Positions 43,781 through 53,539 of a stretch of 64,000 bases of DNA are shown in pieces. Position 1 is the first letter of the stretch, and every line of letters starts with the position of its first letter. The stretch is from Cirrosporium novae-zelandiae (Eukaryota): positions 186,001 through 250,000 of the forward strand of contig JAPETS010000028.1 in NCBI GenBank assembly GCA_026023565.1, written 5' to 3'. Made by a program: the position numbers and the translations under genes. The notes under the pieces are model-generated. The model was not told where the DNA came from. It worked only from the letters and a program-made list of their open reading frames with translations, and searched no databases.

Positions 43781-45980
43781 ATGTATTGCATTAGATTTGC
43801 TGGGCTGCTGGTAACGACATGCTGCTTCATCTCATTTGGTACGTGCACGCCATCTACCCGCAAGAACCAGAATTTATGACTAAACTTAGAAAGGACATGC
43901 GCGCTTGCTTGGGATTCCAACTGTCCCGTTTAACAGTTCTGTTACTGGTACCTCTTATTCATTCAAAGATTTGCAGGCGATCATTGTTGATTCACGCTAT
44001 GCCAACTCCTCGGATTCTAACGGATATACTCTAATCCCACCGACATTGAGTGACTTTGCAAACACCTTTAGTTCTAACTTTGCATTTGTTGTTGGCTCGA
44101 ATATATCCGTTTATATTGGATCTTATGCTCAGAAGAACTCGGTTTTTTTGACTATTGGTTCCAACTCTGCTTTCCAAGATGCTGCTGGCCGCTTTACTTC
44201 CGAAGCCTATTCTCTGGATATTACCAACCAAAGTATTACCGTTACTGGTGCCAGTCCACTTGGTACTTGGTGGGGTACAATCACCCTTATCCAGCAGGCT
44301 GTTCTCGGGAACCTTTCAATTCCATTTGGATCTGGCGTTGACTCTCCTGGATGGGGAACACGAGGTGTGATGATGGACATAGGACGTCACTATTATCCTC
44401 CAGATTTCTTAGTTGAGATGTGTTCCTATCTCTCTTTTTTCAAGCAGAACGTGTTCCATCTTCACATGAGCGACAATTTGTACAATAACGTTGACATTTA
44501 TTCTCGCGAACGGTCTCTCGATCTGTACAGTGCTTTTAGACCCTACTCAGAGGATGAAGCCGTCGCCGGTCTTAACTGGAGAACCAACGAATCCTACTCT
44601 CGCAGAGATCTTGACTACATTCAAGAGAAATGTGCTAGCCGTGGTGTAACCATTATTCCAGAACTTGAAGCTCCAGGCCACGCATTAGTTATTGTCCAAT
44701 GGAAGCCCGAGTTAGGTCTCGATGATCTAAGTTTGCTTAATATCAGTTATCCCGATACTATCCCGACAATGAAAACCATCTGGAATGTCTTCCTGCCTTG
44801 GTTTCATTCCAAAGTCGTACATATTGGAGCTGACGAATACACCGGTCCAGAGGCCGACTATATTACTTTTGTCAATGACATAAATGAATACATCCAAGAA
44901 ACATCTTCGAAAGACATCCGAATTTGGGGAACTTTTACTCCATATACGAACGGTAGTACGAACGTAAACACATCTGTATCCATTCAGCATTGGGAATTTT
45001 TTGAAGCAAATCCTTACTGGGGGTTTATCAAGAATGGATATGACGTTTTGAACAGCGATGATGCTTTTTATGTCGTTAATAAATGGTCCGGATCTTACCC
45101 ACAAATCCTGAATTTGACTCGTGTTTTCAAGGGAAGTCCATCGGGAGGGCCATATGCTCCTAACATATTCGATACCAGTAACTCTACAAACAATCCATCT
45201 CGCAATAATGAACATGTTCTTGGGCAAGCTGCTGCGCTATGGAATGATTATGGCCCGAATGCAACCACTGTGCTCGAGGCTTACTACGCCCTAAGAGATG
45301 TTCTACCAGCACTAGGTGATAAGCAATGGGGCGGGGACCTTACTCTTGATGAGTATTATCAGATTTTTGACACACTTCAAGCAGCTGTTCCTGCCCAGAA
45401 TCTAGATCGCCGAATCACGTCCAAGTCCGATACGATCTTGCAGTACACCTTTGAGGGAAACAGAACCTCTAAAAATGTCATGGACTCATCGGGTAACGGA
45501 TATAACGGCGTCATCCATGGCTGCTCAGTTAACGGCTCGACCCTCTTCCTCTCAAATGGGTGTTATATAGAGACGCCACTCAAAAGCAAGGGAAGAAATT
45601 ACACCCTCTCCTTTTCTATCAAACCCACATCCGACGAACCTGGAACTCTTTTCTCAGGCCCCGACTCTTCCCTCCTAGCAGGAAACGGCTCCATTACCAA
45701 CGTCACCATGATCAGCGGCGGTAATGCATATAGTTTAAATTACTCCCTCCCGGTCGATTCCTGGACTGATGTCAGCCTCATCGGAAGGGGCAATGCCACA
45801 TATTTTACAGTTCAGACTTCAAACTCCTCGAGCCTGGAGGTGATGGAGTTTTCGACAAAGATGGGGATCAATGGAGAGTATTTTGTTTGGGGTCCCATGG
45901 GGATTGAAGCGCCGCTGGCTAGAATTGGAGAAGGATTTGAGGGTCAAATGAGAAATGTTACTTTGTTAGGTAGTGCTTGA
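43781..45980 (+). CDS. Glycoside hydrolase family 20 beta-N-acetylhexosaminidase with C-terminal ConA/LamG-like domain
   Basis: RGVMMDIGRHY, FHLHMSD, IIPELEAPGH, catalytic HIGADE. Signal-peptide exon from ATG 43781, intron 43839-43893. Confidence 0.92.
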
Positions 45981-46759: not shown

Positions 46760-47385
46760 ATGGCTCAAGATACCCCTCAGTCTCCCCCTCCGGCCGCTCA
46801 ACCAGTTAGTACACTCGTATAGTCCAAGTGGAAAAGCGTTTCAGACTTGGACGAGGCTAATTGCAAGCATGTTACAGCCATTATCATTCCTCAGACTTAA
46901 GCAAATCACCAATGATGTATGTTTCTATTGACTCCTTGTTGTACGTTCCGTCTCTAATAGTACGCAGGCTTGCGAATCCACCTTCAACTCTGTTACAAGC
47001 TACGACCACAGCCGGGTGAAAGCATGGAGCGATAACCTCATTGTATGTTTCTGCATGTATCTACACCTTTGCTATACCTAATACTTTCGGCGCAATTCAG
47101 AATACAATTCTACGATCGCTCGTCTCTGAAACTTCCAAGCCTCCAAGCAATGTACCTCCATTTAAATTTATTGTTCAAGGCACCATCATTCAACACCAAA
47201 CACCACTTTCGAAAGTTGAGCCGGGCTCGTCGGGAAGTCGAAGAGGCATGTACTCGGCATGCGGCGCACACTGGTGTGAGACGGCTGATGGGATGTGGAG
47301 TTATATGTATGAGGCTGGTGCGGCCAAAGGATTAGATGTTATCATCAGTATCATCTGGATCCCAATTGGCATTCCAGGAGTTTAA
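46760..47385 (+). CDS. Tctex-1 family dynein light chain
   Basis: Spliced 'ACESTFNSVTSYDH...W...NTILRSL...FKFIVQGTIIQ...RRGMYSACGAHW...DGMWSY'. Three introns. Confidence 0.85.
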
Positions 47386-48211: not shown

Positions 48212-50302
48212 ATGGATGAACATGACCTTGGCCCTCCACCACCATACTCTGCAACTGATCCCTTAGCTGCTACTCCGAATACCCCGAATACCCCCAGGAT
48301 AATACCGCCCGAAACATTACACGTCTATCGTTTGCACGATATCACAACTACAGATCCTCCTCTCCAGGCTCGTCCCGCCACCCCTCCAAGGCCAAGCTCG
48401 GCCCGTTCTTCTTTAATCCTAACTCCTAAATCGAGTATTGCCAGCTCCATAGATGACCTCTTCTCGGCCGCTGAATACTTTGAAGAACGTTCGGGGAATT
48501 TCCCAGTCTACGATGACCTAATAGACCATCATTTAAGCATCTCTTCCGAGACAAAAACCCAACAACTGATCAAAGTGCCTATTTGCTTGTTAACCCGGCC
48601 TACCGATCTCACACAGCAGGATTGGAATACTTTCATCAATTACCTCCTTCCACCTGAAATATATTCCGAGGATCTTCCCTCAAACTCAAAAGCCCAAGGC
48701 AATCAAGAAACCGAAGAGAACTTCCATCGCCGGATCGATGGCGTGATATCAGAATGGAACGAAGGTTTCTTCGGCCCACGCGGTATGAAAATAACGATAT
48801 CTCTCGTGCTCGGTTCCGGATCTGTCCCATCACCCTGGGTGTGTCCTCTTTGCCTTCAACTTGATGAAATCCCACCAAACCTGGATCGGAAACCAATTCC
48901 TGGCGCATACCCGGCATCGGAAGAGGCGGGTCCATCTACTGAGCCCGCCAACGGTGCCTCGTTCCCCGCCATCGCCGGGGGGCTCAACTGGCTTCTCCGT
49001 CTAGCAGACACGGCACGTCAGCGTGGCGAGGCTTTTGGCGCCGCAATGGAGGAGCGAGGCCAGCGGCTCGGTGAGGTTATGGAAGCTCGAGGTCGTGCCT
49101 TTGGTGAAATGATGGAAGAACATGGTAGGAATATCGAACGTGCTACGGACGAGACGATCAACAATGGACGAGAACGAGGACGACGTGCTCGAGATGGAGT
49201 GAGGGGATTTGGACGTGGACTAAGTCCGAGCTTTCCACCACCACCACCCTTCTGCTGGCCTCCATCACCAGGGGGTTCGTTCGATAATTCTGGTTCTGAT
49301 CCCGCGGCTTCTGGATCCGCATCCGCAGGGCCCTTTGGTGCAGGTCGAGGCTTCGGCCAGGGCCAGGGTTGGGGCCAGGGCTGGGGGCAAGGCTGGGGGC
49401 AAGGCTGGGGGGGGCGAGGTTGGGGCCGAGGTTGGGGCCAAGGTTGGGGCCGTGGTTGGGGTGGGGGAGCCGCCCCCCGATATAATCCGTGGCTTGCTCG
49501 AGGTCGTGGCTGGGATCGTACACAGTTTTCACCCTGGGCATCTGGCTTTGGCGGAGATCCACGAGATGGCCGTACGCGCTCTGACCCTTCTGTACATCAC
49601 CAGCAACGCTCACGTAGCTCTTCAACTAGCTCATCCTCCTCCTCATCCACCTTTTCCTCAGCCGCCGGGCCCCCACGACCAACCCGTAGCACTTCATCCG
49701 GGCTCAACGATATCGATAACACCATCACCGACTTGGGATCCACCATTGCAGCGTTCTCACTCGACCCCACACGCAGGGAGCGGATCGTGGATGCTGTGAA
49801 TGCGCTGAAAGCGGAGCTGGTGGAAAGCAGATCGGATCCGAAGAAGAGAAAAGCAATGGTGAAGGAGCTGAAAACCCTAGGGAAGGAGATTAGAGATGAG
49901 GCTAGGAAAATTAGGAAAGAGTCGAAAAGGGTGAGGAGGGAGAATAGAAAGGAGGAGAGAAATAAAAAGAAAGAGAAGGGAAAAGGAGAGAAGGGGAAGG
50001 GGGAAAGAAGAGGCATAAGCAGAGGCGAAAGAGTAGAGAATCGAGGGGAAAGAATGGAGAATAGAGGAGAAAGAGTAGAGAATAGGAGGGAGAGGGCCAC
50101 ATGTCCCAAATTCGAGAGAAGAAATATGGAAAGGGAGAGGAGTAGGACATATGAATTGGGCACACGGAACATTGGAGGCGAGAGAACCGGGCTGCACGAG
50201 TTAGATTCACGGGAGTTGCTTTCATCGGAACAAGGTATCCAGAGACAGCAGAGTAGTGATATCGCAACAGCGCAGGAGACAGGAGTCGCCCCAAGGGTTT
50301 GA
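48212..50302 (+). CDS. 696-aa modular low-complexity protein (PPxY motif, folded N-terminal block, GW repeats, charged coiled coil)
   Basis: Intronless ORF with good context AACCATGG; globular-looking block 'QDWNTFINYLLP...ISEWNEGFFGPRG'. Confidence 0.82.
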   Translation: MDEHDLGPPPPYSATDPLAATPNTPNTPRIIPPETLHVYRLHDITTTDPPLQARPATPPRPSSARSSLILTPKSSIASSIDDLFSAAEYFEERSGNFPVYDDLIDHHLSISSETKTQQLIKVPICLLTRPTDLTQQDWNTFINYLLPPEIYSEDLPSNSKAQGNQETEENFHRRIDGVISEWNEGFFGPRGMKITISLVLGSGSVPSPWVCPLCLQLDEIPPNLDRKPIPGAYPASEEAGPSTEPANGASFPAIAGGLNWLLRLADTARQRGEAFGAAMEERGQRLGEVMEARGRAFGEMMEEHGRNIERATDETINNGRERGRRARDGVRGFGRGLSPSFPPPPPFCWPPSPGGSFDNSGSDPAASGSASAGPFGAGRGFGQGQGWGQGWGQGWGQGWGGRGWGRGWGQGWGRGWGGGAAPRYNPWLARGRGWDRTQFSPWASGFGGDPRDGRTRSDPSVHHQQRSRSSSTSSSSSSSTFSSAAGPPRPTRSTSSGLNDIDNTITDLGSTIAAFSLDPTRRERIVDAVNALKAELVESRSDPKKRKAMVKELKTLGKEIRDEARKIRKESKRVRRENRKEERNKKKEKGKGEKGKGERRGISRGERVENRGERMENRGERVENRRERATCPKFERRNMERERSRTYELGTRNIGGERTGLHELDSRELLSSEQGIQRQQSSDIATAQETGVAPRV

Positions 50303-50621: not shown

Positions 50622-51564
50622 CTAACTAGCATCCGCATGCACACTCTCATTCCTCTCCACCAGATCCCCCACCCCCAGCCCCCTCCCAACCTTAACCCTC
50701 CTCTTCTTCCCCCCTCCTCTTTCCTTCCCCCCACCCCCACCTTCTTTCTTCCCCACCTCCCCCACCGCATCCCCCTCATCCTCCGCCTCACTCTCACTAC
50801 TACTACTACTACTCTCCTCCCCAGGTTTAATCATGAGATGTTCCAGGTTGAGACGCATCCCGAAGGCATCTTCACCGTCGGCGTAGTATTTGGATTCTGT
50901 GTTTTGGACTTCGAAGCCCAAAGTGTCGCGGTAGAGGTGGAGGGCGGCGGTGTTAGAGACGCGGACGTGGAGGGATACGTAGTGGGCGGAGTAGACTTCG
51001 GCCATGGCACGTTCTTATTGAGGTAAAAGTTGTTAGTGATATTAAGGAAGGCTTGTGGGGCTTGAGATGATGGGGGGGGGGGGCTTAGGTGCGAGTGATA
51101 TGATCTTCTCTAGGCATAGTCATAGTGCAAAAGAGCTCCTCCTTTCTCCAAAAAGTCAATTGGCCGCACCCACACCCACACCCAACAAACAGCCTTCTAG
51201 AAAAAAAAAAACACATACGACTCATCCTCATCAACTTCTCCGCCAACCCCAACTTCCTATGCGTCCTCATAACACTCAAACTAGTAATATGCCCATGCGG
51301 AATCCCATCCGACGGCTCCTCCTCCATCTTCGCAAGCACATATCCCACAATCTTATCGTAGTCGTGCCCATTACCACTACCACCATTTTTGGAATTGGCT
51401 TTGAATCGCGATTTTTTGGAAACATCGACGGCGACAAAGGAGAGTTGGGGCCAACAGAGGGCGTGGTAGAGGTAGTATTTTAGTTGGTAGTTTTCGGGTA
51501 GGTTGGTTAGGTTGCAGAGTTGGACTGAGGGAATGTCGGAGGAGTGGAGGAGGCGGATGTCCAT
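50622..51564 (-). CDS. ARD1: NatA catalytic subunit Ard1/Naa10
   Basis: [67 protein letters not shown]. One ~200-nt intron. Confidence 0.95.
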
Positions 51565-53539
51565 GGTGTATGTAGGAGGGAGGGGTTGGATTGTGGAATG
51601 AAGGAGGGCGAATAGGTGGATGGGAGCTTGGAGGGATTGACTAAATCAGAGTTCCCTTTTTCTTTTTCTTTCGTATATAATAATCGTGGGGGGGGGGTTC
51701 GTTCCTCAAGGTACTAGAAATCTGTTTATTTGTTTGCTAGTTAGTTAATTAGTGGGGGTGGGAAATATATATTATTCACTTTGATAACCGCCTAAGCTCT
51801 CTCTCAAGCAACCAATTAATCAAAACCCCTCTATTAACTAGAGAAACTCATAAAAATTTACCTTTCTAATAAAAAAATTCTCAATTGCATGAAACTGAAA
51901 ACTAAAAAAATTGTTACATGTGTATATGGCTTTGCATGGTAGCTAGGTACACGAGCCTTAAAATAATTGATGGATAAGAATTTAACCACAACACAATCAT
52001 AAATAATTACACTTAACGACGGTAAATTAATAAACAATTATTAAACTAGTGTATGCCGTTGTTATAATTATTTTAAAAAATTGTGGCATAATAGATGTCT
52101 AGGGGAATAAAGAAAGAGGGAGGGGTGTGTCCAACTACAGGCTTCCTTCTCCAAGGTACAGTCACGCACTTCATTCGTTCATTTACCCAAGGCTAATAAT
52201 ATCTTTTACTTCTAGGAAACGCTCCTTTCTCTAAGCTCATCATCATCTCTAAAACACGACCGAAGCTTATTTTCTTTCTTTCTTTCCTTCTTCCTTTTCT
52301 TCCCTTTTTTGGAAAAAAAAAGAGCGAGATCGAGAACCTAGCTAGCTATAGCTACAACTACAAAAACACCGACAACGACAAAAAGGAGCCCTCTCCACGA
52401 TTCCTTGAACCCTTCTTCTAAGCTTAATGGCCTATACATAGATGCCATCATGAGTTAATTCGAGAAGCAGGCCTTCGGAAGAGGATAGAGCTTTGAGGTC
52501 GAGGAAGCAAAGATATCACCTACACCAACTAACTCCTCCAGCTTAGCCCTTTTCTTCCTGGAAGTGGCTAAGAGATCGGCCAGCTAGTAGGCTGAGGACC
52601 ACCACCCTAGTGACACTTATCAATTTATATAAAGCATGTTTGGTTTAGTTGGTGGCGATGACACTCCCAAGAAAACTCGAACGCGTGAAGAAGAAGAAGA
52701 AGCTATCCAAATGTGACGATGAAGGCTGAAGGCTACCCTCAAGTCCAAGTTCCTGTTTATCGACTTATTTCAAAGCATGCTTGTCTTGTTGAAAGAAAGT
52801 GTCTTTCAAGGAAATCAAAATGATGTTCTTCATCCACAACACAAGGTGCTTTGGATAACCAAAAATGAGTCGTTCTTTTTGCTATTCTTCGGACACTATA
52901 TATATATATATATCAATACCTCATACTTGATCAAGTCCTTGCCACTCGATTTACCGATTAAATATCAACCCTTAAATACCCAACAGCACTATATACATAC
53001 TGGAATGGAAGTATACAAGGAAGTTCTCAAGATCCTATATATAACAATTATGAAGAATAGAGGCGTTCATGGCATACTATGCGAGGTTCGGTCGGAGGGG
53101 GTTCGAAGAAGCTCCTTGAGAGTTGAGAGATCCCTAGGTCTAGGGGCGTTGAGGATTTATTTGAGAGTGGCTCTTTCTCTCTCTCTCAACTGTAGTGTGC
53201 TGTGTCGTGATATTTGGAGACGAAGGGGATTGCATGTACGCAAAGATGTCTTTCGAAAAACCTTAAGGGCCAAACCCAAGCTGAGAATAATAATAACCAT
53301 GTGGTTTTTGTTACGGTACGCTACTGCTTAGGGTTGGAGTTGGGAATCTAGTCTCCGAAGATCCAAACATCCCACTCCATGTCTCCATTCTCAAAGCAGC
53401 AACTATGAAAAAACCCCTTCAAGAAAGAAAGAGAGGAAATGACTCCTTACTTGACTCTACTCTTTGCCTAGTTTTACCGAAGACTGGGGAATCGACGATG
53501 CAAAAGGAGTGGAGAAAAGGTAGCTATGGAGTACAAGAC

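Follow-up and report, generated by a model that had tools for sequence, protein, structure and literature searches.

A GW repeat tract in a PPxY-bearing, DUF4646-related fungal protein: a probable lineage-specific expansion of a sticky tail

A dense array of Gly-Trp (GW) dipeptides marks an otherwise nondescript protein of 696 amino acids (aa) from the fungus Cirrosporium novae-zelandiae. Its gene, present in one copy in the genome, lies at positions 48212-50302 (+) of the 64,000-nucleotide (nt) stretch analysed here (contig JAPETS010000028.1, positions 186,001 to 250,000; hereafter the window) as one open frame, with flanking homology on the same strand. The protein belongs to a filamentous-ascomycete family that lacks characterisation and is related to DUF4646. 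A first-pass annotation, made from the letters alone, had read the array either as the Argonaute-binding part of an RNAi effector scaffold or as part of an aromatic-sticker condensate protein, and had likened it to the octarepeat of the prion protein (PrP). With modest confidence, we regard it instead as a lineage-specific expansion of a sticky tail in a soluble scaffold (or substrate) that joins a PPxY motif to a DUF4646-related, GCP16-like domain. We find a locally expanded tail of this kind more probable than a conserved hook that would bind proteins of RNA silencing. The tract itself is probably unremarkable in kind, and the case illustrates that Argonaute hooks are overcalled when GW dipeptides are simply counted. 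The wider suggestion concerns DUF4646 and a widespread, unnamed family of filamentous ascomycetes, for both of which a GCP16/Erf4-like fold and a place in Rsp5/HulA ubiquitylation are proposed.

The GW tract and its variable surroundings

The tract, GQGQGWGQGWGQGWGQGWGGRGWGRGWGQGWGRGWGGG, occupies aa 382-419 (nt 49355-49468 in the plus frame) and takes the form (GWG[Q/R/G])8. Its eight GW dipeptides begin at aa 386, 390, 394, 398, 403, 407, 411 and 415 (spacing 4,4,4,5,4,4,4), bearing out the 4-5 aa period first described, and the ninth, in RGRGWD, follows at aa 433 (nt 49508-49513, +), where the host reads PWLARGRGWD and the homologue P0016 reads PWARGRGYD. All nine fall in a Gly/Arg/aromatic region, aa 373-450, that is 38% Gly and presumably disordered, judging by its composition and by a mean predicted local distance difference test (pLDDT) value of 0.49 in the Atlas whole-protein model. 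Nine GW in 50 aa form the only such cluster in the six frames of the window, the runner-up having three, and the eight GWG of aa 340-460 exceed what composition yields (mean 0.99 and maximum 6 in 20,000 shuffles). The core of the tract is 55% Gly, 21% Trp, 16% Gln and 8% Arg. In Tandem Repeats Finder (TRF) output it is a 12-nt unit of 8.2 copies with 77% matches, together with a 51-nt duplication in two copies; third codon positions vary across the units, while all Trp codons are kept and no GWG core is broken. Scanning the genome with a pattern of two in-phase GWG units yielded 50 matches, of which six are the host tract and most others 6-nt simple repeats. One other run of 12-nt units, at L029:2546-3478 (+) (G000:C96), was rejected: it belongs to an EPQP/EP repeat protein and gives a false GWG-type repeat on the opposite strand. 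The coding strand of the tract at 49360-49467 is also a strong candidate for a G-quadruplex (G4Hunter 1.89 per 100 nt; quadruplex pattern at 49360-49425), ranking second in the window for G-run signal, a by-product of the Gly-Trp-Gly codons.

The tract is not conserved. With aa 70-320 as the query, 1.84 billion representative sequences yielded 177 proteins, the best 150 of which were taken (29-52% identical over the matched stretches), leaving out P0035, P0086 and P0148, which matched the helical repeat only; a profile search then gave 44 matches, 38 of them new, for 185 homologues in all, 154 with at least 400 aa. Named sources include Emergomyces, Xylographa, Sticta, Gyalolechia, Letrouitia, Xylaria, Diplogelasinospora, Trichoderma, Fusarium, Colletotrichum, Madurella, Claviceps and Seiridium. 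Three homologues, P0176, P0182 and P0187, are labelled "RING finger" in UniRef; the label was rejected, because they hold just 3, 1 and 3 Cys, respectively. A word-based search with aa 60-240 scored none of 482 candidates, and one with the tract itself, among longer proteins, none of 3016, the latter being weak evidence. None of the 185 distant homologues matches the host tract. Per 50 aa, Gly-adjacent Trp numbers zero in 68 of them, one in 56, two in 34, three in 17, four in six, five in three and six in a single protein, as against nine in the host; GWG is missing from 143 and never exceeds four, as against eight. A quick tree, built from 155 domains, puts the host in a 38-member clade (Shimodaira-Hasegawa-like approximate likelihood-ratio test, SH-aLRT, 98) on a branch of 0.75 changes per site, so that it has no close relative among the homologues. 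Even within this clade, the 110 aa before the serine run, delimitable in 28 of 37 members, lack Gly-adjacent Trp altogether in 12 of these 28 and never hold more than five, and P0047 carries at the tract's place a Phe version, GFGPGFGRGFG, with the same four-residue unit and without Trp.

What the family does keep is an Arg/Gly/aromatic region. When the 154 long homologues are compared with their local shuffles, RGRG occurs 107 times (14.8 shuffled), GRGW 32 times in 26 proteins (3.0), GRGH 27 times (6.0), GRGF 20 times (5.0) and GWG 65 times (24.7); plain GW, at 151 versus 141, is not enriched. The pattern G-aromatic-G-x-G-aromatic-G appears 16 times in 12 proteins (1.6 shuffled), built on Trp, Phe or His or on a mixture of these and at differing positions, and the aromatic residue of the unit is, on this sequence evidence, exchangeable. 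Tri-RG is found in 55 of the long homologues (8.25 shuffled) and di-RG in 85 (47.6). The host has four di-RG and zero tri-RG, a content that places it among RGG/RG-motif proteins as PMC8327145 defines the two classes. By these counts, the family segment is an expansion-prone RG/aromatic low-complexity region, and the aromatic-sticker half of the first-pass annotation fits it. Resemblance to the RGG/RG regions of the FUS, hnRNP and Scd6 type lies in di-RG with interspersed aromatics in the host and in the enrichment of tri-RG in the family; unlike those regions, the host uses Trp rather than Phe/Tyr, lacks tri-RG, and has no detected RNA-recognition motif or other RNA-binding fold. Two observations weigh against this low-complexity reading: among the aromatics that follow GRG, Trp shows the strongest enrichment, in a comparison whose shuffles ignore kinship, and P0173, P0174 and P0176 also contain short GWG-x-GW cores.

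In our reading, a G-aromatic-G-x unit has been tandemly expanded, in this lineage, within the RG-rich disordered region that the family shares in variable form. The tract would most likely act as a multivalent sticker that contacts RNA or protein through cation-π and aromatic interactions, without a single dedicated partner; the RG-aromatic tail, the serine run and the basic coiled coil may together favour RNA contact and condensation. The host would be a soluble scaffold with its conserved business end at the N-terminus.

The N-terminal PPxY motif and the DUF4646-related domain

At that end, PPPY (aa 9-12, nt 48236-48247, +) is a candidate ligand of the WW domains of Rsp5/HulA, and PPxY motifs do bind these domains according to PMC8050425. 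Of the 185 homologues, 166 carry PPxY within their first 40 aa (8.8 on average and at most 16 after shuffling), that is, as a conserved motif in a disordered segment, in the manner of Rsp5/HulA PY-motif partners; it also precedes the domain in both DUF4646 genes of the genome, which encodes a three-WW HECT gene at C37:516277-518226. Family-wide PPxY and the presence of a three-WW ligase are what the host shares with known Rsp5/HulA adaptors and substrates (alpha-arrestins, Bsd2, Tre1/2). In contrast to these, it has neither arrestin fold nor transmembrane helix, and bears a single motif at its extreme N-terminus; at least two [PL]PxY occur in 55 of the 185 homologues. The PPPY probably docks the ubiquitin ligase, and the host could then serve as an Rsp5 adaptor or be a mere substrate.

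Between PPxY and the domain, within the first 130 aa, 46 of the 154 long homologues contain LRGG (0.14 shuffled), P0002 twice. It is often LRLRGG, resembling the C-terminus of ubiquitin, and the host has RLHD at a similar place. This LRGG, present in a quarter of the family, is a possible deubiquitinase cleavage site or decoy. Literature searches combining LRGG, fungi and deubiquitinase, or Erf4 paralogues and Rsp5, returned nothing on the host family by title or start of abstract.

The folded domain (aa 75-218, nt 48434-48865, +) is predicted to adopt a GCP16/Erf4-like alpha/beta fold that lacks the hydrophobic hairpin. The blocks WNTFINYLLP and EWNEGFFGPRG, proposed earlier as alignment anchors, are present in the host and conserved in the family. 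By profile homology the family is related to DUF4646 (PF15496, fungal, with no function assigned): PF15496 matches at E<=0.1 are seen in 23 of 56 members, the best at 1.6e-4, and the domain profile finds the genome's two DUF4646 proteins with hmmsearch E values of 2.2e-11 and 2.6e-4 and hhalign probabilities of 96.7-97.1. The host itself falls below the Pfam cut-off, with no PF15496 match at E<=1, and is not one of the genome's two PF15496 matches. The two groups have in common a core DW..F helix, W-N-x-x-F-F-x-P-R-G and a final strand, and among named Atlas clusters those of DUF4646 come nearest (scores 0.82-0.85), which is no more than a lead. They differ in that DUF4646 proteins carry a hydrophobic insert (hydropathy maxima 1.54 and 1.68) where the host family has a short charged loop, and in the long RG/serine/coiled-coil tail of the host. 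Full-text search for "DUF4646" found no paper, most subscription journals and bioRxiv supplements lying outside its reach, and as far as the searched literature shows this DUF4646-related family is uncharacterised.

The likeness to GCP16 comes from structure prediction. GCP16 takes the top rank for both models of the domain, and yeast Erf4 is not among the matches listed in those rankings; in Foldseek neither model has a match at E<=0.001. Sequence searches of the PDB gave two chance-level rows with the domain, compositional rows only with the full alignment and none with the short-homologue alignment, and the Erf4 that the genome encodes at another locus is scored poorly by the domain profile, with an hhalign probability of 6-19 and an hmmsearch E of 4.4. 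GCP16/GOLGA7 and yeast Erf4 (PF10256) are accessory subunits of DHHC palmitoyltransferases; the host differs from them in having a charged loop in place of the membrane-inserting helix pair and in lacking an RDYS-like motif, RD[YW] occurring in just 2 of 158 homologues. Both elements are required for DHHC binding, according to PMC12528901. The domain, in our reading GCP16/Erf4-like with its membrane hairpin lost, probably serves to bind a partner or cargo. One CxxC that follows it (CPLC, aa 211-214, nt 48842-48853, +) marks the host's subclade, occurring in 38 of its 38 rows and in no other of the 155 tree rows, and is a candidate metal half-site or acylation site.

Argonaute hook, neutral repeat and other explanations

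A lineage-specific Argonaute hook, whose Trp residues would enter PIWI pockets and so tie the scaffold, and via PPxY perhaps Rsp5, to RISC (RNA-induced silencing complex), strikes us as rather unlikely. With the known hooks (GW182/TNRC6, Tas3, NRPE1, SPT5L, Cryptococcus Gwc1/Gwo1) the tract shares repeated GW in a Gly-rich region whose disorder is read from composition; its composition score is also high. In a re-implementation of the hook predictor (dos score, Karlowski 2010 Table 1, decay value assumed), the host reaches 82.7-96.7, a value attained by none of the 185 homologues (top 56.6) and within the range of the listed plant candidates, such as Arabidopsis SDE3 at 74.5 (PMC2910046). The genome has four Piwi-domain loci, the family is enriched in GRGW, and published work describes fungal GW proteins in RNAi (Gwc1, Gwo1; PMC4778953) and fast sequence divergence among known Ago hooks (PMC2910046). 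Set against this are an unconserved Trp array, a host protein in which no RNA-silencing domain is detected, and Trp pockets that a 2025 survey calls variable in fungal Argonautes (PMC12477606). Composition argues in the same direction: Argonaute hooks have Ser/Asn/Asp/Lys-rich spacers, whereas the host tract keeps a four-residue period with Gln/Arg spacers, is Gly-heavy (0.40 versus 0.21 in the reference set) and is poor in Asn, Asp and Lys, a bias that PMC2910046 names as the main false-positive source of the score. The predictor, recommended earlier as a check, gave a divided answer, in that the host score is high, while 95-99 of the 185 homologues, about half, also pass the cut-off of 6.99, so that the score discriminates little among them. 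Aligned with human AGO2, the Argonaute locus L007 (one of the four, with QDE-2 as its closest solved structure) has 4 of 13 pocket residues identical and 2 similar. Complex prediction of its MID-PIWI part (aa 75-507 of the frame) with aa 374-448 of the host scored 0.00 twice, with controls unfolded, and speaks neither for nor against. The fourth Piwi locus, L008 (G000:C38), has stops inside its match and is split over several frames, as introns or decay of the gene could produce.

An Argonaute hook is possible, without support from conservation. The RNAi-scaffold half of the first-pass annotation does not survive its own conservation check, the tract being missing from the 185 homologues, and yet the refutation is not complete, because GRGW is enriched in the family, close relatives are lacking and known Ago hooks diverge fast. 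Very unlikely, in our view, is the composite in which a soluble GCP16/Erf4-fold family docks Rsp5 by PPxY, often beside LRGG, and reaches ribonucleoprotein condensates by its RG-aromatic tail, with the tail here a true hook and the host an adaptor that brings RISC to Rsp5, there to be ubiquitylated and turned over. Binding of the tract to Argonaute, were it real, would link fungal RNAi to Rsp5-dependent turnover.

Near-neutral expansion, by slippage of the G-rich 12-nt unit in a tolerant linker and without function, is a serious alternative, though we think it improbable. It would account for the strong G-run signal, for a second young repeat in the same gene and for the free variation of the segment among homologues. 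It sits less well with a tract region in which 11 of 75 residues are Trp, or with the codons: both Gly third positions vary over eight units and the GWG core is unchanged, which suggests protein-level constraint, in a comparison biased by the choice of the tract for its GW identity. A PrP-octarepeat-like or prion-forming module deserves very little credence. The PrP unit is PHGGGWGQ, and the tract core is without His (for copper) or Pro; fungal Q/N prion domains are far richer in Asn+Gln than the 10% of aa 373-450. GWGQ occurs four times in the tract, just three times in the 154 long homologues, and the supposed PrP likeness reduces to this four-letter match, even if the octarepeat itself is reported, second hand in a review (PMC7583789), to bind Argonaute. 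Least probable of all is that the tract is untranslated, inside an in-frame intron of 405 nt for which a donor-like GTGAGG (49199), a branch-like CTGAC (49581) and a CAG ending (49603) could be marshalled. The stretch 49199-49603 is stop-free and codon-structured, homologues have coding Gly/Arg/aromatic sequence at the tract's place (one with the PWARGRGYD noted above), and the inter-frame gap of the neighbouring acetyltransferase gene is just ~70 nt. An antisense gene across the tract (PQPW repeats, 192 aa) was rejected as well, because homology on either side of the tract is on the plus strand.

Other parts of the gene and its neighbours

The remainder of the protein follows the family order of PPPY, folded domain, variable Gly/Arg region, Arg-led serine run, helical segment and basic coiled coil, and the host is collinear with P0006 and P0016 (BLASTP E 2e-27 and 7e-30). 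Amphipathic 11-residue repeats of the GEAFGAAMEER type (aa 257-320, nt 48980-49171, +), probably helical, align to the same repeats in these two proteins. One clade (P0014, P0024, P0053 and P0055 among its members) ends in similar repeats of the WGERFGRDMEA type, whose WG looks like part of the helical repeat and not a hook. The Arg-led serine run RSRSSSTSSSSSSS (aa 466-483, nt 49607-49660, +) matches the family consensus and is a candidate phosphorylation tract; a Ser run is found in 126 of the 154 long homologues. Behind it, a conserved, probably helical segment leads into a Lys/Arg/Glu-rich predicted coiled coil (49712-50161, +), basic over aa 546-650 (41 K/R, 22 D/E) and containing the second repeat of the gene, a 21-nt unit (RGERVEN) in three copies at 50021-50085 (+). 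The host protein has no exact match in the sequence collection by look-up, and its Pfam matches to DUF5986, RAP1, HsbA and Macoilin are all below their cut-offs.

The neighbouring genes mark the window as fungal DNA. Upstream lie a GH20 hexosaminidase (43890-45980, +), the C-terminal part of which may be laminin-G-like, and a gene for a Tctex-1 dynein light chain (46760-47385, +). Convergent with the host gene, a GNAT acetyltransferase (Pfam; 50622-51645, -), which we take to be a Naa10/ARD1-like N-terminal acetyltransferase, runs in two frames ~70 nt apart and ends in an acidic Ser/Glu tail.
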